A DNA stretch of 64,000 nt from Ignavibacteria bacterium. GTDB taxonomy: Bacteria > Bacteroidota > Ignavibacteria > SZUA-365. The first letter of the stretch is position 1. Each line of letters opens with the position of its first letter. The position numbers were made by a program, and so were the translations under genes. Under the pieces are notes generated by a model. The model ran no database searches. It was not told the DNA's origin and saw only the letters and a list, made by a program, of their open reading frames with translations. Location of the stretch: NCBI GenBank assembly GCA_016720835.1, contig JADKJW010000031.1, positions 310,625 to 374,624 of the forward strand, written 5' to 3'. Shown piece after piece: positions 50,811 to 63,253 of the stretch.

Positions 50811-52196
50811 TTACAGGTAGATGTCCTTCTCCCCGCCGTCCACTTTCCGGATCATCTCCTCCGTTTTTTCCCGCGTCTTCTCCGGCATCGCGTCGAGTTC
50901 GGCCTGCATGAGGGCTTTCGCGGCCTCGCGGGTGTCGTCGCCGGCGAAGTCGTTGAGGTATTCCTCGAAGGTCGCGAGCGCGTTGGGCGCGCAGATCTTT
51001 CCGATGTTGCCGGACTTCGCGAGGTCCATGAAACGGTCGCCGGTGCGCCCGCTGCGGTAGCACGCGGTGCAGAAGCTGGGCATGTATCCGAGGGAGACGA
51101 CGTCGCGCACCACTTCGTCCATCGGGCGGTGGTCGCCCAGCTGGAACTGTTCGGAGGTCGCGTGATCGCTCGCCATGTAGCCGCCGGGATCGGTGCGCGA
51201 ACCCGCGGAAATCTGCGAGATGCCGAAGTCGAAGAGTCCGCGCCGCGTGTCGGCGTTCTCGCGCGTCGAGAGGATCATGCCGGTGTAGGGGACCGCGAGA
51301 CGGAGGATGGCGACCACGGTCTGGAAGTCCTCGTCGGCGACGGTCCACGGCGAATTGGTGCTGTCGAGCGGCGCGTTGAGCGCGGGTTCGAGGCGCGGAA
51401 TGGAAATCGTGTGCGGGCCCACGCCGTCGAAATGTTCTTCGAGGTGGAGGATGTGCTGCATCATCGCCATCACCTCGAAGCGATAGTCGTAGAGCCCGAA
51501 GAGGACGCCGATGCCGACGTCGTCGATGCCCGCCTCGATGGCGCGGTCCATCGCCGTCACGCGCCAGTCGTAGTCGCGCTTGCGACCGCTTGGATGCACG
51601 TGGGCGTAGGTCTCGCGATGGTAGGTCTCCTGAAAGCACTGGTAGGTGCCGATGCCGAAGGATTTGAGCGCGCGGAATTCGTCCACGGTCATCGGCGCGG
51701 CGTTGATGTTGGCGCGTCGGATGTTGGCGCCGTTCCAGCGCGCGTCGTAGACGGTGGCGATGGACTGCCCGATGTACTCGAGCGGCGCTTCCTTCGGGTG
51801 CTCGCCGGCGACGAGCAGGAGGCGTTTGTGTCCCTGTTCGAGAAGGAACTCCACCTCGCGCCGGATTTCGTCCTGCGTGAGCGTGGCGCGGACGAGTTCG
51901 TCGTTCTCGCGGCGGAAGGAGCAGTAGAGGCAGTTGTTGACGCAGCGGTTCGTCAGGTACAACGGGGCGAAGAACACGAGGCGGTTGCCGTAGATGCGTT
52001 TCTTTTCGTCGCGCGCGGCGAGGTGGATTTCCTCACGGATGTCCCTCGAGCGGGTGTGGAGGAGCGCGGCCACGTCCTCGAGCGTGAGCCGCTCGCGCGA
52101 GCGGGCCTTTGCGATGGTGTCGCGCTGTCGTCCTTCGTCGGTGAAGCGGGGGTCTGCAAGCAGTGCGGCAATGCGTTCTTCGTCGATGATCGGCAT
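50811..52196 (-). CDS. hydG: [FeFe]-hydrogenase H-cluster maturase HydG (radical SAM tyrosine lyase)
   Basis: Radical SAM motif (CVNNCLYC). It also has the HydG-specific C-terminal CX2CX22C motif (CTACYRSGRTGDRFMDLAKSGNIGKIC), which ThiH lacks. Its position is next to the hydrogenase genes. Confidence 0.8.
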   Translation of the reverse strand: MPIIDEERIAALLADPRFTDEGRQRDTIAKARSRERLTLEDVAALLHTRSRDIREEIHLAARDEKKRIYGNRLVFFAPLYLTNRCVNNCLYCSFRRENDELVRATLTQDEIRREVEFLLEQGHKRLLLVAGEHPKEAPLEYIGQSIATVYDARWNGANIRRANINAAPMTVDEFRALKSFGIGTYQCFQETYHRETYAHVHPSGRKRDYDWRVTAMDRAIEAGIDDVGIGVLFGLYDYRFEVMAMMQHILHLEEHFDGVGPHTISIPRLEPALNAPLDSTNSPWTVADEDFQTVVAILRLAVPYTGMILSTRENADTRRGLFDFGISQISAGSRTDPGGYMASDHATSEQFQLGDHRPMDEVVRDVVSLGYMPSFCTACYRSGRTGDRFMDLAKSGNIGKICAPNALATFEEYLNDFAGDDTREAAKALMQAELDAMPEKTREKTEEMIRKVDGGEKDIYL

Positions 52197-52253: not shown

Positions 52254-53699
52254 TCAACGGCGCGTGTTCTGTTCCTGCATCTCGACGTGATCGTCCTCGA
52301 GCTCGGTGGCCGTCTCGACGAAGCGCTTCGGCAGGGTGATGAAAAAGGCCGTGCCGGGGCGCTCGGCGCCGTCGCCGAGGCGCGAGGGGGAGTCGACGCT
52401 GATGCTGCCGTGGAACTGGTGGATGATCTGCTTGACGATGGAGAGTCCGAGGCCGGTGCCTTCGGTGGTCTTCTTCTTGGAGACGGTGGTGCGGTAGAAG
52501 TCGTCGAAGATGCGGTTCAGCTCGCCCTTGGGAATGCCGATACCGGTGTCGGCGATTTCGATGCTGATGAGATCGTCGCGTTCCTTCAGGTGCACTTCCA
52601 CGACGCCCTCGGATTCCGTGTACTTGTGCGCGTTCGAGATGAGGTTGCCGAGGGCCAGCTTCAGCAGACGCGGTTCGGCCTCGATATGCAGATCTTCTTC
52701 GGCGTTGGTCCAGGTCGTGAAGCGGATTTTCTTGGCCATGAACATGATGCGCATCTCGTCGTAGATGTCCTCGAGCATCTCGGTCAGGTTGATGTCGGCC
52801 GCCTCGATGCGGTTGGCGAGCTTCACCTGCGAAAGCTGGAGGATGTCGTTGATGAGCGTGATGGCGGAGCTCAGCCGCGCGCGCGAGCGCTCCAGCGGCC
52901 GTTCCATCTCCTCGCTGAGCGCGCCGAAGGACTTGTCGAGCAGCATGTTGATGTAGGTGATCGCCGCGGCGATCGGGGTCTTCAGGTCGTGCACCACCGA
53001 CATGACGTAGCGCGATTTCGTCTTCTCGGCCTCTTCGAGCTGCTTGTAGGCGCGGGTCAGAGAACGCTCGCGCAGGTACAGCTCCTTGGAGATGGAATTC
53101 GCGAGGTAGTTGCTCACGAGCAGGGTGAAGGTGAAGACGAGGAAGAAGACGATGATGTACGGCGCGTTCGTGTAGAGCGGCGCGCCGAGGAACCCCACGA
53201 TCGCGTGATGCGGTATCGTGCCATGGTATTCGAGCAGCACCCCCGTGAGCATCGTGGAGAGCGACACCGCGATCACCACCGACACGACGGCGGACGGCAG
53301 GATCAGGCTCCCGATGATGATGTGGAACAGGAAGAAGAGGAAGAACGGCGACTCGATGCCGCCGGTGAAGTACATGATGCCCATCAGCACGAGCAGATCG
53401 GCGCTGATCTGAATGAGCGCGAAATGCAGGCCGTGGAAGGGCGCGTACGCGGCGGGCACCGCGCCGATGCTCCGGTGCAGCACGACGTTGTACGCGAGGA
53501 TGCACACCGTGATGATCGCGATCGGCAGCGTGTCGACCTGCAGCTGCGGCAGCGCCGCCATGCCGGCGAGGAAGACGGTCAGGGCGAGAACGGCGCCGTA
53601 GCGCAGCGTGATCAGCCAGAGGTTCCGGCGCTTCAGCGCGATCCAGAACTGGTCGAACATGATCCATTGCGGCGTCAGGGCAAGCATGCGTGCGCTCAT
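52254..53699 (-). CDS. Membrane-bound sensor histidine kinase (polytopic N-terminal sensor, HisKA plus HATPase_c)
   Basis: About 6 TM helices, an H-box (VVHDLKTPIAAAITYINML), an N-box (LALGNLISNAHKYT) and a G-box (GTGLGLSIV). Start MSARML; the in-frame ORF extends to 53771. Sits between hndD and hydG. Confidence 0.75.
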   Translation of the reverse strand: MSARMLALTPQWIMFDQFWIALKRRNLWLITLRYGAVLALTVFLAGMAALPQLQVDTLPIAIITVCILAYNVVLHRSIGAVPAAYAPFHGLHFALIQISADLLVLMGIMYFTGGIESPFFLFFLFHIIIGSLILPSAVVSVVIAVSLSTMLTGVLLEYHGTIPHHAIVGFLGAPLYTNAPYIIVFFLVFTFTLLVSNYLANSISKELYLRERSLTRAYKQLEEAEKTKSRYVMSVVHDLKTPIAAAITYINMLLDKSFGALSEEMERPLERSRARLSSAITLINDILQLSQVKLANRIEAADINLTEMLEDIYDEMRIMFMAKKIRFTTWTNAEEDLHIEAEPRLLKLALGNLISNAHKYTESEGVVEVHLKERDDLISIEIADTGIGIPKGELNRIFDDFYRTTVSKKKTTEGTGLGLSIVKQIIHQFHGSISVDSPSRLGDGAERPGTAFFITLPKRFVETATELEDDHVEMQEQNTRR

Positions 53700-53801
53700 G
53701 GGCGTTCCCCGTGTGATTGGGATATTGTTGTTCTGTTTTGTGGGCGAATGAGCCGGAAAAAGGGCACGCACCGCGGTCGCGGCGCGTGCCCTTCGTTTCC
53801 G

Positions 53802-55680
53802 TCAGGCGATGTACTTGCCGCGTTCAACGTAGTGCGTGTGCAGCAGCTTGTGGGACGTGTGCCCGCACGGACCCTCGACGAGGAACTTCTCGTAGATGTA
53901 CTTCACGTGCTCGTTCTCGTGCGACTTGCGCAGCGCGAGACTCGCGTCCTCGGCATAGATCGCCTCGGCGCGCTTCTGACGGATGTCCAGCGAGGTCGGG
54001 ATCGGCTGTCCGCCGCCGCCGATGCAGCCGCCCGGACATCCCATCACCTCGATGAAGTGCACGTCGGCGAGTTCGCCGCGCTTCATGGCTTCCATCACCT
54101 TCTTCGCGTTCGCGGTGCCGTGGGCGATCATGAAGTTGAGGCTGACGCCCTCGAGAAAGCCCCATTCGGGCTTGACGTTCTCGAGTTTCACCGAGGCCTG
54201 CTTGACGCCTTCGAAGCCGCGGCAGGGCATGATGTCGAGGTTCGCGAAGGGGACTTCGCGGCCCGTGACGAGTTCGTACGCCGTGCGCAGCGCGGCTTCC
54301 ATCACGCCGCCCGTGGCGCCGAAGATCAGGCCGGCGCCCGAGGCTTCACCGAAGGGATCGTCGAAGCCGGTTTTTTCGAGCTCCGGCAGGAACAGACCCG
54401 CTTCCTTGATCATCTGCGCCATCTCGCGCGTCGTCAGGCCGAAGTCCACGTCCTTGAAGCCGCTGTCGTCCATTTCGGGACGGTTGCACTCGAACTTCTT
54501 CGCCGAACAGGGCATGACGGCCACCGTGATGATGTCCTTCGGATCGATGCCGCGCTCCTGCGCGTAGAAGGTCTTGATCACCGCGCCGAACATCTGCTGC
54601 GGGGATTTGCAGCTCGACATGTGGCCCAGGTATTCCGGATAGAAGTGCTCGATGTACTTCACCCAGCCGGGCGAACAGGACGTGAACTGCGGGAGCTTCA
54701 CGTCGGGATTCTTGTCGACGAGCGCCGCCTTGAGCCGGAGCAGCAGTTCGGTGCCTTCTTCCATGATGGTGAGATCGGCGGTGAAGTTCGTGTCGAACAC
54801 GCGGTCGAAGCCGATCATGCGCAGCGCGGTGTTCAGCTCGCCCGTCATCGACCGTCCCGGCGCGAGGCCGAATTCCTCGCCGATGGCCGCGCGCGGCGAC
54901 GGCGCGGTCTGAATGACCACGTGCTTCTTCGGGTCGTCGATCGCGGTCCAGATGTCGTCGGACGGATCGTTCGCCTTGAGCGCCGCGGTGGGGCAGCGGT
55001 TGATGCACTGGCCGCAGTTGATGCAGACCACGTCGGCCAGCGGCTTGTCCATGAACGTGGAGATGCGCGTCTTGTCGCCCTTGCCCGACGGCCTCGAGCA
55101 CGCCCACTTCCTGCATGTCGATGCACGTGCGCACGCAGCGCCGGCAGAGGATGCACTTGTCCATGTCGCGGACGACGGAGTAGCTGGACTGGTCCACGCT
55201 GTGCGTGCGCTCGGTCACGTGGCCGAAGCGGTACGAGTCGACGCCGTACTCCTTCGCAAGGGTCTGCAGTTCGCAGTTGCTGTTGCGATGGCAGGAGTAG
55301 CACTCGCCGTAGTGTTCGCTCAGGAGCAGGTCCAGGATATGCCTGCGGGCCTTGCGGACCTTCTCCGACGTCGTGACGATTTTCATCGGGTTGGTGACGG
55401 GATAGGTGCAGGCCGCCTGCAGGGTGCGCATGCCTTCCACTTCCACGACGCACATGCGGCAGACGCCCGCGAGGCAGAGGTCGCTGTGATAACAGAGGGT
55501 GGGGATGTGGATGTTGTGCGTTTTGCAGGCGTCGAGCACGGTGGTCCCGATCGGGACGTGAAATTGCTGCCCGTTGATGGTGAGACTGACGAGCGACCCG
55601 ATCTCTCCGAGGGGGCTCGCCTTCACGGTCAATGGCTGTTGCGCATGCGGAGCGCGTGTGGTGTCTGATGATGGTTGCAT
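53802..55680 (-). CDS. hndD: [FeFe]-hydrogenase catalytic subunit (HndD/HydA-like; N-terminal 2Fe-2S and 4Fe-4S ferredoxin domains plus H-domain), read through one apparent frameshift near 55085
   Basis: N-terminal part (55680 to about 55086): 2Fe-2S (CYHSDLCLAGVCRMC) and a His-ligated cluster (CYSCHRNSNC), ending ...CILCRRCVRTCIDMQEVGVLEAVG. C-terminal part (ORF 53802-55052): MDKPLADVVCINCGQC... with H-cluster motifs (TSCSPGW, MPCSAKKFE, EVMGCPGGCIGGGGQP). Deleting one G from gtcgggcaagggcgacaag restores ...AVGKGDKTRISTFMDKPLADV. The 54346-55052 part of the upstream ORF is an out-of-frame extension. Confidence 0.8.
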
Positions 55681-55692
55681 TGCCGTGTCTGC

Positions 55693-56862
55693 TTATCGTT
55701 GTGAGAAGATTTCGTGCTGGAAATGGGTCAGGATCGAGAGAAACGGCGACGGGCTCGACTGCCCGAGACCGCACTTCGAGGCGACCTGCATGGACTGGCC
55801 GAGTTGCATCAGCTCGTTGAGGTAGCGCATCGAGCATTCGCCCTTCTCGATTTTCTCGACGCCGTCAAGCAGCTTGATGTTGCCGATGCGGCAGGGCGTG
55901 CACTGGCCGCAGGATTCCTCGACGAAGAACTCCATGAAGTTTTTCAGCACGTGAAGCATGTCGCGGCTCTCGTTGAACACGATCACCGATCCGCCCGTGG
56001 AGACGTCCTCGAACGCCACCTTGCGGCCGAATTCGCTCTTCGGGACGCAGGTGCCGGATGCCCCGCCGACCTGCACGGCCTTCGTGTCCTTCGCGCCGAC
56101 CATCTCCAGCAGTTCCGCGATGGACATGCCGAAGGGAATCTCGTAGACGCCCGGTTTTTCGCAGTCGCCCGACACCGACACGAGTTTCGAACCCGCCGAT
56201 TTGTCCGTGCCGATCTGCTTGTACCACTCGGCGCCCTTCGACAGGATCACCGCGACGCTGGCGAACGTCTCGACGTTGTTCACCGTGGTCGGATAGCCCA
56301 TGTATCCCGTGTTGACCGGGAAGGGCGGCCGGTTGCGCGCTTCGCCGCGATGGCCTTCGAGCGACTCGATGAGCGCGGTTTCTTCGCCGCACACGTAGGC
56401 GCCCGACCCGAGGCGGATATGAATGTCGAACGTGAAGTCCTTGCCGCAGACGTTTTCGCCGAGGCGATGATCCGCGCGCATTTTTTCCAGCACGCCCTCG
56501 AGCTTGGCGAGGAGGTAGCGATACTCGCCGCGCAGGTACAGGAAGCCCGTCTGCGCGCCGATCGTGTAGCCCGCGATGGCCATGCCTTCGAACACGAGTT
56601 CCGCGTACTCGTCAAGCAGCACGCGATCCTTGAAGGTGCCCGGCTCGCCCTCGTCGGCGTTGCAGACGACGAACTTTTTGTCCGCCATCGCCGCCGACGC
56701 GAGCATCCACTTGGTGCCCGTCGGGAAGCCCGCGCCGCCGCGGCCCTTGAGGCCCGACTCGCGCACTTCCATGACGATGTCCTGGCGCGTCTTCTTGAGC
56801 GCCTCCGCGAGGCCGTTTCCGTGCATGGCCGTATCAAACAGTACGATGCCTTTTCTTTCCAT
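55693..56862 (-). CDS. hndC: NuoF-like flavoprotein subunit of NAD(P)-dependent [FeFe] hydrogenase (HndC/HydB-like)
   Basis: FMN and NADH site motifs (GRGGAGFPTGTKW, CNADEGEPGTFKDR) and 4Fe-4S motifs (CGQCTPC...C). Strong AGGAGGA RBS. Confidence 0.8.
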   Translation of the reverse strand: MERKGIVLFDTAMHGNGLAEALKKTRQDIVMEVRESGLKGRGGAGFPTGTKWMLASAAMADKKFVVCNADEGEPGTFKDRVLLDEYAELVFEGMAIAGYTIGAQTGFLYLRGEYRYLLAKLEGVLEKMRADHRLGENVCGKDFTFDIHIRLGSGAYVCGEETALIESLEGHRGEARNRPPFPVNTGYMGYPTTVNNVETFASVAVILSKGAEWYKQIGTDKSAGSKLVSVSGDCEKPGVYEIPFGMSIAELLEMVGAKDTKAVQVGGASGTCVPKSEFGRKVAFEDVSTGGSVIVFNESRDMLHVLKNFMEFFVEESCGQCTPCRIGNIKLLDGVEKIEKGECSMRYLNELMQLGQSMQVASKCGLGQSSPSPFLSILTHFQHEIFSQR

Positions 56863-56874
56863 GGCGGTGTCCTC

Positions 56875-57348
56875 CTAGGCCCGGTTCTTGAGAATGTCCG
56901 CGATGCGCTGCGGGGTGAGGTGCGTGAACACCTCGTCGTTGATCAGCATCGCGGGGCCCTGGTCGCACATGCCCATGCAGTTCGCGAACTCGAGCGTGTA
57001 TTTCTTGTCCGTCGTGGTTTCGCCGAAGCGCACGCCGATCTCCCGCTCGAGCGTGCGGATGATCGCGTCCTTCCCCGCGAGATCGCAGGAGATCGTGCGG
57101 CAGAGACGGATGATGTTGCGGCCCTTGGGCTCGGTGCTCAGGAAGGAGTAGAAGGTGATGACGCCGTACACTTCCACGGGGTGGATGTCGAGCAGGCGCG
57201 CGATTTCCTGCTGCCCGAAATCGGAGATGTGGCCGTGCCGGATCTGGACCTGCTGAAGAATGGGCAGGAGCGCCTCGCGCCCGCTGCCGTGAACCGCGAT
57301 CAGCTTCTCGATCTCGGCCGTCAGGGCGTTCTTCTCAGTGACTAGCAT
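56875..57348 (-). CDS. hndA: NuoE-like thioredoxin-fold 2Fe-2S subunit (HndA/HydC-like)
   Basis: 157 aa with the 2Fe-2S cysteine pattern (CRTISCDLAG...CMGMCDQGP). Confidence 0.8.
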   Translation of the reverse strand: MLVTEKNALTAEIEKLIAVHGSGREALLPILQQVQIRHGHISDFGQQEIARLLDIHPVEVYGVITFYSFLSTEPKGRNIIRLCRTISCDLAGKDAIIRTLEREIGVRFGETTTDKKYTLEFANCMGMCDQGPAMLINDEVFTHLTPQRIADILKNRA

Positions 57349-57730
57349 GGGTGCTCCGTTTCGATTGTGCGAGATGAAACTTCACCTTGTCGAGCAAGAT
57401 GGCGGGCGGGACCGGCTTCTCCAGAAATTCCTCGATCGGCACCATTTCGCTTGCGCCGAAATTGAAGCCGATGGCCTTCGACACCGACGTCAGCATGATG
57501 ATGGGAATGGTGAATCCGGATTTGCGAAAACGGTTCGCGAGGTAGAAACCGTCGTCCGGCTCCTGCATCATCACATCGAGAATGATCAGATCGGGATGCT
57601 CGGCGTTGACGAGGGCGATCGCCTCGTCCACCGAGGCCGCCGAGACGACGCTGAATCCGTTCGCTTCGAGCAGCATCGTGTTGGCTTCCACGATATCCGG
57701 ATCATCGTCGATGATTGCGATTTTGTTCAT
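57335..57730 (-). CDS. Single-domain response regulator (CheY-like receiver)
   Basis: Acidic pocket and phosphoacceptor Asp (IIDDDPD...LIILDVMM), and the conserved Lys (EKP). AGGAG RBS. Overlaps the hndA start by 14 nt and is the first gene of the minus-strand operon. Confidence 0.8.
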   Translation of the reverse strand: MNKIAIIDDDPDIVEANTMLLEANGFSVVSAASVDEAIALVNAEHPDLIILDVMMQEPDDGFYLANRFRKSGFTIPIIMLTSVSKAIGFNFGASEMVPIEEFLEKPVPPAILLDKVKFHLAQSKRSTHASH

Positions 57731-58066
57731 CGGTACTCCTGTGGTGTATGGAAGGTGCGTGAGACAGTTCTGGCAGCATGGGCGAAAAACAACGGGGCGT
57801 GTCGGCGGTGTTTCGGAGGAGGTGCTTCATTGTGCAATCGCTAAATTAATCACTATAGACATTGCAAACAAAAAGAAAATCACCCAGGCTCTCTTGATTC
57901 ACCCTATGATATATCCGAATTAAGGGACTTTGTTCGTTTTAATGCGTGAAGAAATTCACCATTTGATCGAAAAATAGGTTGACCTTTTGTCCGAAATTTC
58001 CGACATTTGTTCACGATCGATCGCTGCATCAAGACAGAACTTTAAAAATCAAGCACCTGCGTCATC

Positions 58067-60106
58067 ATGCCTGTCATTTCAACCATACCCGAGCGCTGCA
58101 AGCGGTGTTACTGCTGCGTCAGGGAATGCCCCGCAAAAGCCATACAGATCAGTCACGGCCAGGCCGTCGTCATTGCCGAGCGCTGCATCGGATGCGGCAA
58201 TTGCCTGAAAGTCTGTTCGCAGAACGCGAAGGCCGTTCGCAACGGCATCGGAGGCATCGCCGCGCGGCTCGCGCTGCCGGGCAGCGCCGAGAAGATCGCC
58301 TGCATCGCGCCGTCCTTCCCGGCCGCGTTTCCGGACGTGGCGCCCCTGCGCGTCGTCGGCGCGCTGCGCGCACTCGGGTTCACCAAGGTCCTCGAGGTCG
58401 GCTTCGGCGCGGATCTGGTCAGCGCGGAGTACCGGCGCTATGTGGACCAGGCGGAAGGCACCGTCATCACCACGCCGTGCCCTTCCGTCGTGGAACTGAT
58501 CGAGAAATACTACCCCGAACTGATTCCGAACCTCGCGCCGATCGTCTCGCCGATGATCGCCTGCGGCAAGGTGGCGCGCGAGCGCTACGGCGCGGGCGCC
58601 TTCGTCGTCTTCATCGGCCCCTGCATCGCGAAGAAGCTCGAGATCGCCGATCCGGAATGCGACGGCGTGATCAACGAGGCGCTGACCTTCGACGAGACCG
58701 CCAAACTTCTCGCGAACGCCGGCGTCGACGTGCACACGCAACCGGAGCGCGAGTTCGACCAGCCGCGCGCGAATCTCGGGCAGATCTACCCGCTCTCCGG
58801 CGGATTGCTCAAGAGCGCGGGCATCGGCGCGGACGTGATGGACGCGGAGGTGATCGTCGTCGAAGGCCGCGAACACTGCCTCAACATCATCAACGAGATC
58901 GCCTCCGGGAAGGTCGGCACCAAGCTCATCGACATCCTCTTCTGCGAGGGCTGCGTCAACGGTCCCGGCATGCACAGCAGCCTGAACTACTTCGAGAAGC
59001 GCGAGCGCATCATCGGCTTCGTGAAGGAACGCACCGCCACGCTCAACGCCGCCATCTGGAAGAACTCGATGACGAACTACGCGGGCATCAGCCTCGCGCG
59101 CGGCTTCCGCAACTGCCGCATCGAGGAACGCGCGGTGCCGGACGCGGAGATCGACGCCATCCTCACCGCCGGCGGAAAGGCGCGCGTCGAGAACCGCCTC
59201 AATTGCGGCGCCTGCGGCTATCCCGACTGCCGGCAGATGGCGGTGGCCATCGCCCTCGGCCTCGCCGAACAGGAAATGTGCCTGCCCTATACGATCGACA
59301 ACCTCGAGCGCTCGCACCGCGAACTGGCCCAGGCCCAGGAGCAGCTCATCCACACCGAGAAGCTCGCCTCCGTCGGACAGCTCGCCGCGGGCGTCGCGCA
59401 CGAAATCAACAACCCGCTCGGCACCATTCTCCTCTACTCCCATCTGCTGCTCAAGCAACTGCAGGACGCGGAGCCGGCCCGCAAGGACATCCAGTTCATC
59501 GTCCAGGAAGCGAACCGCTGCAAGACCATCGTCTCGAGCCTCCTCAACTTCGCGCGACAGGGGAAGCTCGCCGTCGCGGAGACGACGGTCGGCGATCTCG
59601 TCGCGTCCATCGTCGCCATGATCGCGCATCGCGAGGAGTTCGGCGCCATCCGCATCGGCACCACCATCGCGCCCGATCTCCCGCCGCTGCACGTGGACGT
59701 GGACCAGATGAAACAGGTGCTCCTCAACATCGCGATCAACGCCTGCGAGGCCATGCCCGCGGGCGGGACGCTCGATTTCACCGCCGGGAAAGGCGAGAGG
59801 GACGAGATCGTGTTCACCATCGAGGACAGCGGCGGCGGCATCCCGAAGGAGAACATGTCCAAGCTCTTCACGCCGTTCTTCACGACGAAGCAGATCGGCA
59901 AGGGCACGGGACTCGGCCTCCCCATCGCCTACGGCATCGTCAAGATGCACCATGGCAGCATCACGGTGCGCAGCGACGCCGGGAAGGGCACCGCCTTCCG
60001 CATCGCCATCCCGTCCGATGTCCGCGACCTCCATTCCGGCCCGATGACGCCGCTCGAATTCGCGTCCACCCTCGACGCGTCCGCGTCGTCTTCACTGCAG
60101 CAGTGA
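58067..60106 (+). CDS. Sensory [FeFe]-hydrogenase-like protein (HydS-type H-domain with accessory 4Fe-4S clusters) fused to a HisKA/HATPase_c histidine-kinase transmitter
   Basis: Two N-terminal ferredoxin motifs (CKRCYCCVRECP; CIGCGNCLKVCS). H-cluster motifs with the ligating Cys retained but the proton-relay Cys replaced (TTPCPS instead of TSCCP; GPCIAKKLE; FCEGCVNGPG). A HydS-like CX2CX4CX16C motif (CGACGYPDCRQMAVAIALGLAEQEMC). No PAS domain. An H-box (GVAHEINNPLGTILLYSHLL), an N-box (LLNIAINACEAM) and G-boxes (DSGGGIP, GKGTGLGLPI). Confidence 0.8.
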   Translation: MPVISTIPERCKRCYCCVRECPAKAIQISHGQAVVIAERCIGCGNCLKVCSQNAKAVRNGIGGIAARLALPGSAEKIACIAPSFPAAFPDVAPLRVVGALRALGFTKVLEVGFGADLVSAEYRRYVDQAEGTVITTPCPSVVELIEKYYPELIPNLAPIVSPMIACGKVARERYGAGAFVVFIGPCIAKKLEIADPECDGVINEALTFDETAKLLANAGVDVHTQPEREFDQPRANLGQIYPLSGGLLKSAGIGADVMDAEVIVVEGREHCLNIINEIASGKVGTKLIDILFCEGCVNGPGMHSSLNYFEKRERIIGFVKERTATLNAAIWKNSMTNYAGISLARGFRNCRIEERAVPDAEIDAILTAGGKARVENRLNCGACGYPDCRQMAVAIALGLAEQEMCLPYTIDNLERSHRELAQAQEQLIHTEKLASVGQLAAGVAHEINNPLGTILLYSHLLLKQLQDAEPARKDIQFIVQEANRCKTIVSSLLNFARQGKLAVAETTVGDLVASIVAMIAHREEFGAIRIGTTIAPDLPPLHVDVDQMKQVLLNIAINACEAMPAGGTLDFTAGKGERDEIVFTIEDSGGGIPKENMSKLFTPFFTTKQIGKGTGLGLPIAYGIVKMHHGSITVRSDAGKGTAFRIAIPSDVRDLHSGPMTPLEFASTLDASASSSLQQ

Positions 60107-60113
60107 GCACGCC

Positions 60114-61604
60114 ATGACAGACAAACCCACGCTGCTCGTCGTCGACGACGAGTTCGGCATGCGCGAAGGCATCTCGCGCATCTTCGCCCTCGAGGGTTAC
60201 GACGTGACCGTCGCGGAGAACGGCACCGACGGCATCGCGCGCGGCCTGGAGCGCGAGTTCGACGTCACCCTCCTCGACCTGAAAATGCCCGACATCGACG
60301 GACTCACCGTGCTGCGCCGGCTCCGCGAAACGTATCCCGACACCGAGTACCTGATGATGACGGCCTTCGCCGGCATCGACTCGGCGGTGGAGGCCACACG
60401 CAACGGGGCGTACACGTACATCCCGAAACCGTTCACGCCCGACCAGATTGTCTTCGAGGTCGATCGCGCCCTCGCCAAACGCCGCCTCACGATGGAGGCG
60501 CGCGAGCTGCGGGCCGATCAGGAGCGTCGCCTCCTCGAAATCCATCTCGAGCAGAGCCGCCTCCGCACCATCATCAACGCCATCAGCGACGCGGTGTTCG
60601 TGACCAACCTCGAGGAGCAGATCGTGCTGGCAAATCCGCAGACCCGGGCGCTGTTCGGCTTCTCGTCGCGCGTCATCGCCGGCACGCACATCGATGACAT
60701 CTTCCCGAAGGAAGTGACCGACGTGATCCGCGACGCCGCCGCGAAGGCGCCGCTGGGCGTGGAACTCGTGTCGCGCGAGTGGGAGATGAAACCCGAACTC
60801 GAACTCGTCGTGTCGATGAAGACCGTGCCGCTGCGCGACCGCGACGACGCGGTCATCGGCTTCGTCTCCACGCTGCAGGACGTCACCGAGCTGAAAAAAC
60901 TCGACATGCAGAAATCGCAGTTCGTCTCCATGGTGGCGCATGAACTCAAGGCCCCGCTGGCCGCGATCTCGGGGTACCTCGAGACCATGCAGGGCAAGCT
61001 GCTCGGCGCCGACATGGCGAAGTACGAGACCATGATCGACCGCTCGAATCTCCGCCTGCGCTCGATGATCGACCTGATCAACGACCTGCTGAACATCAGC
61101 CGCAAGGACCTCGGCACCGCGCGTCGCGAGATCGTCGCGGTGGCCGTGCCGGAAGCCGTCGAATCCGTCGCGGACTTCCTTCGCCAGGAAATGGCGAAGC
61201 GCGCGCTGCGCTTCGTCACGGACTACGCCGACGCGCTGCCGACCATCGACGTGGACCGCGACGAATTCTCGCGTCTCCTCACCAACCTCCTCAGCAACGC
61301 CATCAAGTACAACCGCGAGGGCGGCGAGATCCGCGTCGCCGCGCGCGCCGAGGAGGATTCCGTCATCCTCAGCGTCGGCGACACCGGCATCGGCCTCACC
61401 TCGGAGGAGCGATCACAGCTGTTCCGGCAATTCTACCGCGCCAAGAACGAGCAGACGCGTTCCATCCCCGGCACCGGCCTCGGCCTCTCCATCGTCAAGG
61501 GCATCGTCGAATCCTATCACGGCAACATCGACGTGCAGAGCGAGTTCGGCGTCGGAACCACCTTCGTCCTGCGCATCCCGGAGCATTTCGTCGACCGCTC
61601 CTGA
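60114..61604 (+). CDS. Hybrid signal-transduction protein: receiver domain, PAS domain, HisKA and HATPase_c
   Basis: N-terminal REC (LLVVDDEFGMREGISRIFALEGYDV...LLDLKMPDIDG). A PAS-like region (IINAISDAVFVTNLEEQIVLANPQTRALFG). An H-box (MVAHELKAPLAAISGYLE), then N, G1 and G2 boxes. It starts 7 nt after the preceding stop. Confidence 0.8.
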   Translation: MTDKPTLLVVDDEFGMREGISRIFALEGYDVTVAENGTDGIARGLEREFDVTLLDLKMPDIDGLTVLRRLRETYPDTEYLMMTAFAGIDSAVEATRNGAYTYIPKPFTPDQIVFEVDRALAKRRLTMEARELRADQERRLLEIHLEQSRLRTIINAISDAVFVTNLEEQIVLANPQTRALFGFSSRVIAGTHIDDIFPKEVTDVIRDAAAKAPLGVELVSREWEMKPELELVVSMKTVPLRDRDDAVIGFVSTLQDVTELKKLDMQKSQFVSMVAHELKAPLAAISGYLETMQGKLLGADMAKYETMIDRSNLRLRSMIDLINDLLNISRKDLGTARREIVAVAVPEAVESVADFLRQEMAKRALRFVTDYADALPTIDVDRDEFSRLLTNLLSNAIKYNREGGEIRVAARAEEDSVILSVGDTGIGLTSEERSQLFRQFYRAKNEQTRSIPGTGLGLSIVKGIVESYHGNIDVQSEFGVGTTFVLRIPEHFVDRS

Positions 61605-61792
61605 TTTCGGATTGAACAGTTGTCACCCCGAGTCACTCATTGCACGGCATCCCATGAGCGTCGTCAATGACAGTTCCGTGAGAAGAAAAGGCGATCGCGA
61701 AACACACGAAATGTCCGAATGAGTCCGAAAAAAGATGTTTTCGTAGTTTTCGCTTTATTCGATTGCTTCGTGATCTCTTCTGAATCCGGTAT

Positions 61793-63253
61793 TCAATCCG
61801 AAATTGGAAATCCGCAATCCGCAATCCTCGCGATCCCGCGCAGCATGCCGCGGAAGACGAGGGCGTGCACCGGGTAGATGCCGTACCAGTAGAGGATTCC
61901 CGCGAGTCCGACGGGATCGAAGATCGCGGTCTGCCGGATGACGGCGCCGTCGCCGTCGGGGGTGACCTGATACTCGAGCCACGCGCGGCCGGGGACTTTC
62001 ATTTCTGCGAAGAGACGCAACTGCACACCGGGTTCGATGACTTCCACGCGCCACCAGTCCACGGCGTCGCCGACGCACAGATCGACGGGGTGCCGCCGCC
62101 CGCGGCGCATGCCGACGCCTCCGGCGAGGATGTCCGCGAAACCGCGCAGGCGCCAGAGCCAGTTGCCCCAGTACCAGCCCGTTTCACCGCCGATGCGCTG
62201 AATGGGCGCGAAGGCCCGCGCGGGTGTGCATGCGACGCGGATGCTGCGCTGATCGAGGAGGCGGTTTCCGAAGCGCGTGCCGCCCCAGCCGGGCGCGATG
62301 CCCGCGGACGAGAGCGCGTCGGACCAGCGCGTCTCGGCGAACTCGCGGTCCTCGTTGCGCAGCGCGTCCGCGATCGCGTCGCGCACGCTCTTCGGGCGCA
62401 GAGGGAAATCCGCGAGCGCGGACTGATCCTCCACGACGGTGGGATGCTTGAGGCTTTCGGCGAGCTTGCGCCCGACGCGCGCGTACAGCGGCGTGACGAG
62501 TCCGAGCCAGAGGCTCGAGAGCCGCGGCGTGAGCACCGGCACGGGGATCATCACGCGCCGCAGGCCGCGCTGGCGGGCGTACTCGCGCATCAGGTCGCCG
62601 TAGGACAGGCGGTCCGCCGCGCCGATTTCATAGACGCGGTTGCCGTCGGCCCGCACGTCGAGCGCGAGCGCGAGGTACGCGAGGAGGTCGGCGATGCCGA
62701 TCGGCTGCGCTTTCACCGACACCCAGCGCGGCGTGATCATGACCGGCAGGCGTTCGACCAGGGCGCGGATCATTTCGAAGGAGAGGCTTCCGGAGCCGAT
62801 GACGATGGACGCGCGCAGCTCGATCACCTGCACGCCGGATGCGGCGAGCACGCGGCCCACCTGCTGGCGGCTGCGCAGATGCGAGGACAGCGCCTCGGCG
62901 GAGGAACCGAGTCCGCCGAGGTACACGATGCGGCGCACCCCGGCCTCGCGCGCGGCCGCCCCGAAATTCTCCGCGGCGATGCGGTCCAGCGTCTCGAAGT
63001 CGCGGTCGTCGCCCATGGAATGCACGAGGTAGTACGCCGTGTCCACTCCGCGCATCGCGGCGCCCAGGCTCGCGGCGTCGAGCACGTCGCCCTGCGCGAT
63101 CTCCGTGTCGCCGCCGACGCGCGCGGCGAGCTGTGCCGGTCTCCGAGCGAGGCAGCGCACGCGCTCGCCCGCTTCCTCGAAGCGCCGCAGCAGCCGTCCG
63201 CCGATGTACCCGGTTGCGCCGGTGAGCAGGATGAGACGGGGGGATGTTGGCAT
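61793..63253 (-). CDS. NAD(P)-binding SDR/NmrA-like protein fused to a C-terminal DUF2867-like domain
   Basis: Rossmann motif (LLTGATGYIGGRLL). The C-terminal about 170 aa are polyketide-cyclase/SRPBCC-like (WYWGNWLWRLRG...). Confidence 0.65.
   Translation of the reverse strand: MPTSPRLILLTGATGYIGGRLLRRFEEAGERVRCLARRPAQLAARVGGDTEIAQGDVLDAASLGAAMRGVDTAYYLVHSMGDDRDFETLDRIAAENFGAAAREAGVRRIVYLGGLGSSAEALSSHLRSRQQVGRVLAASGVQVIELRASIVIGSGSLSFEMIRALVERLPVMITPRWVSVKAQPIGIADLLAYLALALDVRADGNRVYEIGAADRLSYGDLMREYARQRGLRRVMIPVPVLTPRLSSLWLGLVTPLYARVGRKLAESLKHPTVVEDQSALADFPLRPKSVRDAIADALRNEDREFAETRWSDALSSAGIAPGWGGTRFGNRLLDQRSIRVACTPARAFAPIQRIGGETGWYWGNWLWRLRGFADILAGGVGMRRGRRHPVDLCVGDAVDWWRVEVIEPGVQLRLFAEMKVPGRAWLEYQVTPDGDGAVIRQTAIFDPVGLAGILYWYGIYPVHALVFRGMLRGIARIADCGFPISD

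Follow-up and report, generated by a model that had tools for sequence, protein, structure and literature searches.

Within the 64,000-nucleotide stretch of the Ignavibacteria bacterium contig JADKJW010000031.1 analyzed here (the window), one gene encodes a sensor kinase in which a HydS-type [FeFe]-hydrogenase module is fused to a histidine kinase transmitter, and it is flanked by genes for further signaling proteins and by the divergent operon of a bifurcating-type hydrogenase (Table 1). A preliminary description of this DNA had singled out a 679-residue open reading frame (ORF) with a hydrogenase H-domain, two N-terminal [4Fe-4S] motifs and a C-terminal CX2CX4CX16C motif, and this anatomy is borne out by Pfam profiles and alignments. 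The N-terminal motifs read C11-x2-C14-x2-C17-x3-C21 and C40-x2-C43-x2-C46-x3-C50, and their eight cysteines are invariant in an alignment with 36 relatives, the set to which statements of invariance in this paragraph refer. The H-domain matches Fe_hyd_lg_C with 172.9 bits (cut-off 22.1) over profile positions 4-245 of 245, and its L1, L2 and L3 loops (T-T-P-C138-P-S, G-P-C186-IAKKLE and D-I-L-F-C293-E-G-C296-VNGPG) contain C138, C186, C293 and C296, which align with C300, C355, C499 and C503 of CpI. These four residues are likewise invariant, as are the H-box histidine H445 and the four cysteines of the C-terminal motif, a motif known from HydS classes M2e and M2f (PMC8163306); none of the cysteines or the histidine on which the preliminary description relied is missing on alignment. 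The transmitter is recognized by the HisKA (E 5.8e-14) and HATPase_c (E 5.8e-24) profiles, with the H-box A-H445-EINNPLG (H445 codon at 59399-59401) and the ATP-binding boxes N554/N558, D587-x-G589-x-G591, F601/F604 and G613-x-G615-x-G617, which are invariant or nearly so. Based on the H-box, the N, G1, F and G2 boxes and the receivers encoded nearby, the protein is predicted to be a HisKA (class I) histidine kinase. NCBIfam models gave only partial, sub-threshold matches, the N-terminal half resembling [FeFe]-hydrogenase models and residues 410-653 AtoS/ZraS/CckA-type kinases. Full-length homologs are 64-71% identical to the window protein. A tail of about 30 residues past HATPase_c (60017-60106, residues 651-679; DVRxxxSGxMTPxEFAxAL) is common to the closest clade (58-71% identity) and missing from more distant relatives; model confidence in this part is low.

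Table 1. Features of the sensor kinase gene and of the surrounding locus, in window coordinates.
Feature	Coordinates	Strand	Basis or remark
Sensor kinase gene, HydS-type [FeFe]-hydrogenase module fused to HisKA/HATPase_c transmitter	58067..60106	+	ATG start, 679 aa
Two ferredoxin-type [4Fe-4S] motifs, residues 7-54	58085..58228	+	Fer4-type dicluster Pfam matches
H-domain, residues 77-300	58295..58966	+	Fe_hyd_lg_C (PF02906), E 1.2e-50
C-terminal cluster motif C380-x2-C383-x4-C388-x16-C405	59198..59287	+	PF04060 'FeS', residues 378-407, E 2e-9
Continuous predicted helix, residues 406-464, C405 boundary through H445	59282..59458	+	AlphaFold2 secondary structure
Transmitter, HisKA residues 437-498 and HATPase_c residues 544-650	59375..60016	+	Pfam
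REC-PAS-HisKA-HATPase hybrid kinase, 496 aa	60114..61604	+	Pfam
Single-domain response regulator, 131 aa, first gene of divergent operon	57335..57730	-	Response_reg, E 8.7e-20
hydC, NuoE-like [2Fe-2S] thioredoxin-like ferredoxin	56875..57348	-	PF01257, E 3.9e-47
hydB, NuoF-like FMN/NADH subunit	55693..56862	-	Complex1_51K and NADH_4Fe-4S
hydA, catalytic subunit of bifurcating-type (A3/A6; NADH-dependent) [FeFe]-hydrogenase	53802..55680	-	NCBIfam FeFe_hydrog_A6
Membrane histidine kinase, six-transmembrane PilS/RegB-like N-terminus, HisKA and HATPase_c	52254..53771	-	Pfam
hydG-like radical SAM maturase for the H-cluster	50811..52196	-	Radical_SAM and BATS

The H-domain carries the marks of a putative sensory enzyme. 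The preliminary description had reported that the L1 loop reads TTPCPS and that the proton-relay cysteine is lost, and this is confirmed: the equivalent of CpI position 299 is proline, that of position 300 is cysteine, and among about 200 relatives position 299 is occupied by Pro (95), Ser (34), Ala (24), Thr (18) or Asp (17) and in none by Cys. Since proline is the commonest state in the family, in which TTPCP is also the most frequent L1, a sequencing error is ruled out for this residue of the window protein. Among HydDB sensory sequences, proline has been reported here for about 10%, TmHydS itself having Ala and not Pro (PMC10055695). Of the same relatives, 194 have Gly at position 353 and 195 have Leu at position 497, and in an alignment to a catalytic HydA the segment opposite CpI E279-R286 is deleted from the sensor. 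The residues at 299, 353 and 497 appear to fit the sensory pattern of TmHydS and TamHydS, a comparison that rests on the residue identities given in PMC8163306 and PMC10055695 and not on direct alignment. No HydS structure was found in the PDB by sequence or Foldseek searches.

The transmitter follows the C-terminal cluster domain directly. A direct join of the hydrogenase part to the transmitter, made up of a dimerization and histidine phosphotransfer (DHp) and a catalytic ATPase (CA) domain, had been proposed together with the lack of a PAS domain, and both points hold, as no Pfam PAS family matched the protein at E <= 0.01. In an AlphaFold2 model built on 36 homologs (mean pLDDT 84.2), residues 300-464 contain no five-stranded sheet, and because residues 300-405 are predicted to be all-helical, a cryptic PAS fold is not expected either. 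The model places two helices around the H-box, at residues 406-464 and 470-498, the DHp hairpin, and the first of these runs without interruption from the last cluster cysteine through the phospho-accepting histidine. In Foldseek comparisons, the N-terminal 300 residues superpose on DdH, CpI and the HydA subunits of Thermoanaerobacter kivui and Thermotoga maritima HydABC, and the C-terminal part superposes on the cytoplasmic domain of ZraS with a target-normalized TM-score of 0.77. The distance equivalent to C405-H445 was 33 residues in one, 40 in 80, 47 in 116, 54 in three and 68 in one of 201 distinct relatives, so that every value equals 5 modulo 7 and the spacing changes in heptad steps. 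Such quantization is the signature expected of a register-preserving coiled-coil signaling helix, and it provides the strongest evidence at the sequence level that the C-terminal cluster domain may be mechanically coupled to the kinase. It also agrees with a structural role of this cluster domain.

The genes around the sensor are those of a signaling system and of a hydrogenase. The REC-PAS-HisKA-HATPase hybrid kinase that had been noted downstream is indeed present as an intact ORF, starting 7 nucleotides past the sensor stop codon (the junction sequence ends cagTGAgcacgccATGaca), and its receiver is likely to be the first phosphoryl acceptor of the sensor. On the other side, 337 bp separate the sensor from the divergent hydCBA operon, which opens with a gene for a protein consisting of a receiver (REC) domain only; this gene overlaps hydC by 14 nucleotides. 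The operon closes with a membrane kinase, for which a weak NCBIfam match to ActS/PrrB/RegB lies under the cut-off. Next on this strand is the gene of the hydG-like maturase, which is 78% identical to, and syntenic with, its counterpart in the closest related locus described below. In total, the locus encodes three kinases and two receivers and no DNA-binding output domain. Only [FeFe]-type hydrogenase domains were recognized at the locus, and no [NiFe] hydrogenase domains were found with Pfam and NCBIfam. Pfam searches of ten ORFs located at 37-50 kb and at 63.3 kb returned housekeeping genes or nothing. As the transmitter resembles NtrB, ZraS and AtoS, a sigma-54 promoter (TGGCAC-N5-TTGC, <=2 mismatches) was sought, but no match was present in the intergenic region 57731-58066, and matches in the whole window were fewer than in shuffled sequence. 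A scan of 57300-62000 for sigma-70 promoters and terminators likewise gave nothing exceeding chance.

This arrangement is conserved well beyond the window. No exact copy of the window protein was present in a public gene index; the closest relative of the sensor (71% identity) is encoded in an Ignavibacteriota metagenome-assembled genome (GCA_016218045.1; locus L001) with an identical gene order and protein identities of 71-89%. A NuoF and HydA gene pair lies less than 10 kb from the sensor gene in 56 of 81 related loci, many of the others being on short contigs; on the strand of the sensor, the pair lies upstream in 38 loci and downstream in 15, and it is divergent in one locus (L001) and otherwise arranged in two. 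Of the 79 loci with enough sequence, 73 have a receiver gene that begins within 900 bp on the downstream side of the sensor. Pfam analysis of the neighbors in Victivallales, Bacteroidales, Calditrichota, Planctomycetota and Thermoleophilia revealed a recurring module, in which the sensor kinase is followed by a REC-only protein, a REC-HisKA-HATPase kinase and radical-SAM maturases. Variations on this theme exist: in a Thermoleophilia locus the REC-kinase comes immediately after the sensor, the REC-kinase of Victivallales, which has no PAS domain, shares 42% identity with that of the window in the REC and kinase parts alike, and in a Clostridia locus an NtrC-type REC-sigma54-helix-turn-helix (HTH) activator takes the place of the REC-kinase. 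The REC-only gene, which in other phyla directly follows the sensor, is located at the head of the divergent operon in the window, and adjacency of REC and hydC recurs in Ignavibacteria-type, Thermoleophilia and Myxococcota loci. Overlap and adjacency hint at stoichiometric synthesis of the REC-only protein and the hydrogenase. The RegB-like membrane kinase is found at the same position after hydA in L001 and in eight Ignavibacteria-type loci. This gene context supports a regulatory role of the sensor kinase. The multistep phosphorelay suggested in the preliminary description is plausible in this setting, but the term was loosely worded, since neither an Hpt domain nor a DNA-binding output is present; the unit shared across phyla consists of the sensor kinase, a single-domain REC protein and a REC-kinase.

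The fusion of hydrogenase and kinase is common, and the rarity implied at first did not stand. The best 120 matches among 5.8 billion proteins all share the Fer4/Fe_hyd_lg_C/FeS/HisKA/HATPase_c architecture, at lengths of 650-730 residues and 94-100% query coverage, and at least 595 species-representative genomes (one per species) from more than 15 phyla encode a relative; the class itself has been named in HydDB and in PMC11406978. The 80 relatives kept from this species scan belong to Ignavibacteriota, Bacteroidota, Planctomycetota, Calditrichota, Hydrogenedentota, Acidobacteriota, Myxococcota, Chloroflexota, Spirochaetota, Verrucomicrobiota, Clostridia, Thermoleophilia and others, and in databases such proteins are labeled 'histidine kinase' or '[Fe-Fe] hydrogenase large subunit C-terminal domain-containing protein'. 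Hence, the architecture is not new, and the window gene adds one ordinary member to a class that is already catalogued and very widespread. These data also bear on the suspicion that the two halves of the ORF were misjoined during assembly or that L1 was altered by an error. The homopolymer frameshift in the neighboring hydA indicates that the sequence is not error-free, but all 120 best protein matches and the 80 relatives kept from the species-genome scan are colinear with query residues 1-649, L001 has the same gene order, and TTPCP prevails in the family. An artifact of either kind was therefore rejected, and we give it next to no chance; full-length colinear relatives in many species genomes speak directly against a misassembly chimera.

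The sensor module is not confined to kinases. A search with residues 1-410 against 1.84 billion cluster representatives retrieved 937 clusters at E <= 1e-30, and in a Pfam survey covering half of the 150 nearest clusters (75), PF04060 was present in 71, HisKA/HATPase_c in 20-21 and PAS in about 22. A sigma-54 activator AAA+ domain was fused to the module in nine of the 75, six of which also have a Fis-type HTH; such fusions are predicted to be one-component H2-responsive transcription activators. Three proteins, counted among the nine fusions or among the 75 sampled relatives, carry a REC domain. Thus, the HydS module has been reused widely as an input domain, with the fused kinase among its common outputs.

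Proteins of this kind have been catalogued under several names. HydDB (2016) divides group C into C1 ('histidine kinase-linked (putative)'), C2 ('chemotactic') and C3 ('phosphatase-linked'), each possibly H2-sensing (PMC5037454), and ING2E5A_0849 of Petrimonas mucosa, which adjoins hnd genes, was called C1 and kinase-linked (PMC7768429). A 2024 study of Hydrogenedentota introduced 'BfuT', a sensory hydrogenase with a PAS or histidine kinase domain located beside the group A3 hydrogenase BfuABC; the reference for the kinase type is Caldithrix abyssi, with WP_006928132.1 as an example of such a protein, and the corresponding BfuABC clusters are of sub-type V (PMC11406978). The subgroup label differs in the literature, the Bacteroidales kinase-linked protein being assigned to C1 (PMC7768429) and the kinase-bearing BfuT matching C3 best (PMC11406978). 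The window protein shares with these the linkage of a sensory-type H-domain to a histidine kinase and the location beside a group A3 bifurcating hydrogenase, an arrangement also seen in its Calditrichota, Hydrogenedentota and Bacteroidales relatives. It differs in nothing essential: in the window, hydCBA is inverted, the REC-only gene has moved to the head of that operon and a PAS domain has been added to the partner REC-kinase.

In the biochemical literature, group C is described as an 'H-domain plus PAS', and the characterized proteins are TmHydS and TamHydS only (PMC8163306; PMC10055695). Like TmHydS of Thermotoga maritima (group C, M2f), the window protein has two N-terminal [4Fe-4S] motifs, all H-cluster ligands, a replaced C299, Gly at 353 and the C-terminal Cx2Cx4Cx16C cluster, and it is encoded with a bifurcating hydrogenase. 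However, TmHydS has its PAS domain at the C-terminal end and passes the signal on to separate proteins, whereas in the window protein, which has no PAS domain, DHp and CA directly follow the cluster domain; the two also differ at positions 299 (Pro in the window protein, Ala in TmHydS) and 497 (Leu and Ser, respectively). With TamHydS of Thermoanaerobacter mathranii (group D, M2e) it shares the lack of PAS, the C-terminal cluster and Leu at 497. A kinase-like ATPase is encoded near TamHydS, which itself has no fused output, has Ser at 353 and a C-terminal cluster that is not reduced by H2, in contrast to the covalently attached output of the window protein. By its logic, the system is an analog of the [NiFe] regulatory hydrogenases HoxBC-HoxJ-HoxA and HupUV-HupT-HupR (group 2b), in which a slow hydrogenase is the H2 receptor for a kinase controlling hydrogenase genes (PMC5037454). 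The window protein is not a member of that group, as metal site and fold are unrelated and sensor and kinase are there separate proteins communicating via a PAS-like domain, here one polypeptide free of PAS. The transmitter is closest to ZraS/AtoS/NtrB-type HisKA kinases, with the cytoplasmic domain of ZraS (9jfj, E 7.5e-37) as the best solved relative; the NCBIfam resemblance is limited to the kinase part, and the input module is entirely different. Newly contributed by the present analysis are the conserved three-gene signaling module, the predicted lack of a PAS fold and the heptad-quantized link between C405 and H445.

Based on these observations, we hypothesize that the protein is probably a cytoplasmic, soluble, H2-responsive sensor kinase with a HydS-type input that controls the adjacent bifurcating hydrogenase; the one-polypeptide H2-sensing kinase of the preliminary description is thus also the best reading of its predicted role. 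The H-domain would bind an H-cluster, for whose maturation the locus would supply HydG and genes elsewhere HydE and HydF, and, lacking the proton-relay cysteine and the E279/E282/R286 segment, would react with H2 and turn over slowly. The state of the H-domain and of the C-terminal [4Fe-4S] domain would be passed mechanically along a single coiled-coil helix from C405 to H445, where it would shift, in one direction or the other, the balance between autokinase and phosphatase activities of the transmitter. Next, the phosphoryl group would be transferred to the receiver of the downstream hybrid kinase and/or to the REC-only protein encoded at the head of the hydCBA operon, and the net outcome would be H2-dependent control of the adjoining electron-bifurcating hydrogenase.

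Several points weigh against this proposal. In TamHydS, 1 atm H2 leaves the C-terminal cluster unreduced, and the redox state of this cluster is not coupled to the H2-induced structural change; the authors of that study favor a structural over a redox function (PMC13104023). This makes a redox relay through the cluster doubtful and a structural role possible. The locus encodes neither a DNA-binding nor another output domain, and tblastn detected no further receiver domain in the rest of the 64 kb. Neither hydE nor hydF turned up where the window was annotated, hydA as the presumed target is frameshifted in the window sequence, and our literature search found no experimental work on a kinase-fused member.

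Other signals than H2 have to be considered for the same protein. The accessory clusters could report the ferredoxin or NADH pool, with an H-cluster that is vestigial or equilibrates the pool with H2, so that the kinase would tune the confurcating hydrogenase to the reductant load. The strict conservation of the three accessory clusters, the attachment of the kinase to the C-terminal cluster domain and not directly to the H-domain, the second, RegB-like membrane kinase of the same operon, which hints at redox integration, and the unresponsiveness of the TamHydS C-terminal cluster to H2 (PMC13104023) would all suit such a cellular redox sensor. Nevertheless, the four H-cluster ligands and the L2/L3 framework are invariant across more than 15 phyla, which is difficult to reconcile with a dispensable H-cluster, hydG is syntenic, and TmHydS and TamHydS bind active H-clusters and react with H2 (PMC8163306); we therefore consider this explanation unlikely. 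H-clusters are intrinsically reactive to O2 and CO, and a sensor of these inhibitors that shuts off hydrogenase expression upon attack of the cofactor can be envisaged. Although sensory-type enzymes show unusual reactivity with CO and O2 (PMC8163306), neither sequence nor context of the window gene points to these gases, and the tight link is to H2-metabolizing genes, which makes such a function very improbable.

A different question is whether the protein acts on gene expression at all. It has been treated as the T subunit of BfuABC in the 2024 survey (PMC11406978), and as a bound regulatory subunit ('BfuT/HydS') of HydABC it could receive electrons or report turnover and act post-translationally together with the REC-only protein and not on transcription. 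The proximity of the sensor gene to hydCBA in most loci, the coupling of REC-only and hydC by overlap and, in other phyla, by adjacency, and the lack of a DNA-binding output at the locus are consistent with this idea. However, there is no evidence of complex formation, the solved HydABC complexes (7p5h, 8a6t and 7q4v) contain no such subunit, 20 of the 81 loci have no hydrogenase within the fetched sequence, which is short in many, and the Clostridia partner is a classical NtrC-type transcription activator. Hence, we give little credence to a bound subunit. A bolder variant of the sensor kinase proposal combines the C-terminal [4Fe-4S] domain as a mechanical transducer with a REC-only and REC-kinase pair that acts on HydABC itself; action on the enzyme is suggested by the translational coupling of the REC-only gene to hydC, and we regard this combination as a long shot. 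If it were true, it would provide the first direct biochemical readout, autophosphorylation, for the putative H2 sensing by groups C and D and reveal post-translational control of electron bifurcation.

The window gene itself introduces no new principle, its architecture being abundant in public genomes. For 'sensory' [FeFe]-hydrogenases, both the sensing of H2 and the route by which a signal would leave the protein are putative, and finding interaction partners was called critical in the 2026 study of TamHydS (PMC13104023). In this regard, a covalently attached kinase is a built-in and easily measured output that makes the family a convenient experimental system, and the heptad-locked helix that joins the final cluster ligand to the phospho-accepting histidine suggests concrete mutants.

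The catalytic hydrogenase genes next to the sensors have features of their own. In the window, FeFe_hydrog_A6 matches two pieces of hydA with 575.7 and 205.5 bits, and the reading frames switch at 55072-55088 by one extra G in the GGG run at 55078-55080. Deletion of one G restores a 625-residue ORF colinear with the intact 624-residue HydA of L001, and the frameshift is either a homopolymer sequencing or assembly error or a sign of a very recent pseudogene. The L1/P1 motif of this HydA is TSCSPGW (in FTSCSPGW; ORF 53802-55052, residues ~122-128), which places Ser opposite C300 of CpI, a [4Fe-4S]H ligand. Searches of the literature for the literal text 'TSCSP' returned unrelated papers only; Ser at this position is common in such HydA proteins (PMC11406978) and is likewise present in Acetobacterium woodii HydA1 (PDB 7q4v). 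Across loci L001-L079, the TSCSP-type L1 was found in 41 of 61 catalytic HydA genes adjoining sensor kinase homologs. Two catalytic HydA genes lie near the sensor in loci L007, L008, L010, L012, L013, L024, L031, L035, L047 and L049, mostly as one of the TSCCP and one of the TSCSP type, with two of the TSCSP type in L031, L035, L047 and L049; in such loci, a single sensor module may sit between two hydrogenase operons.

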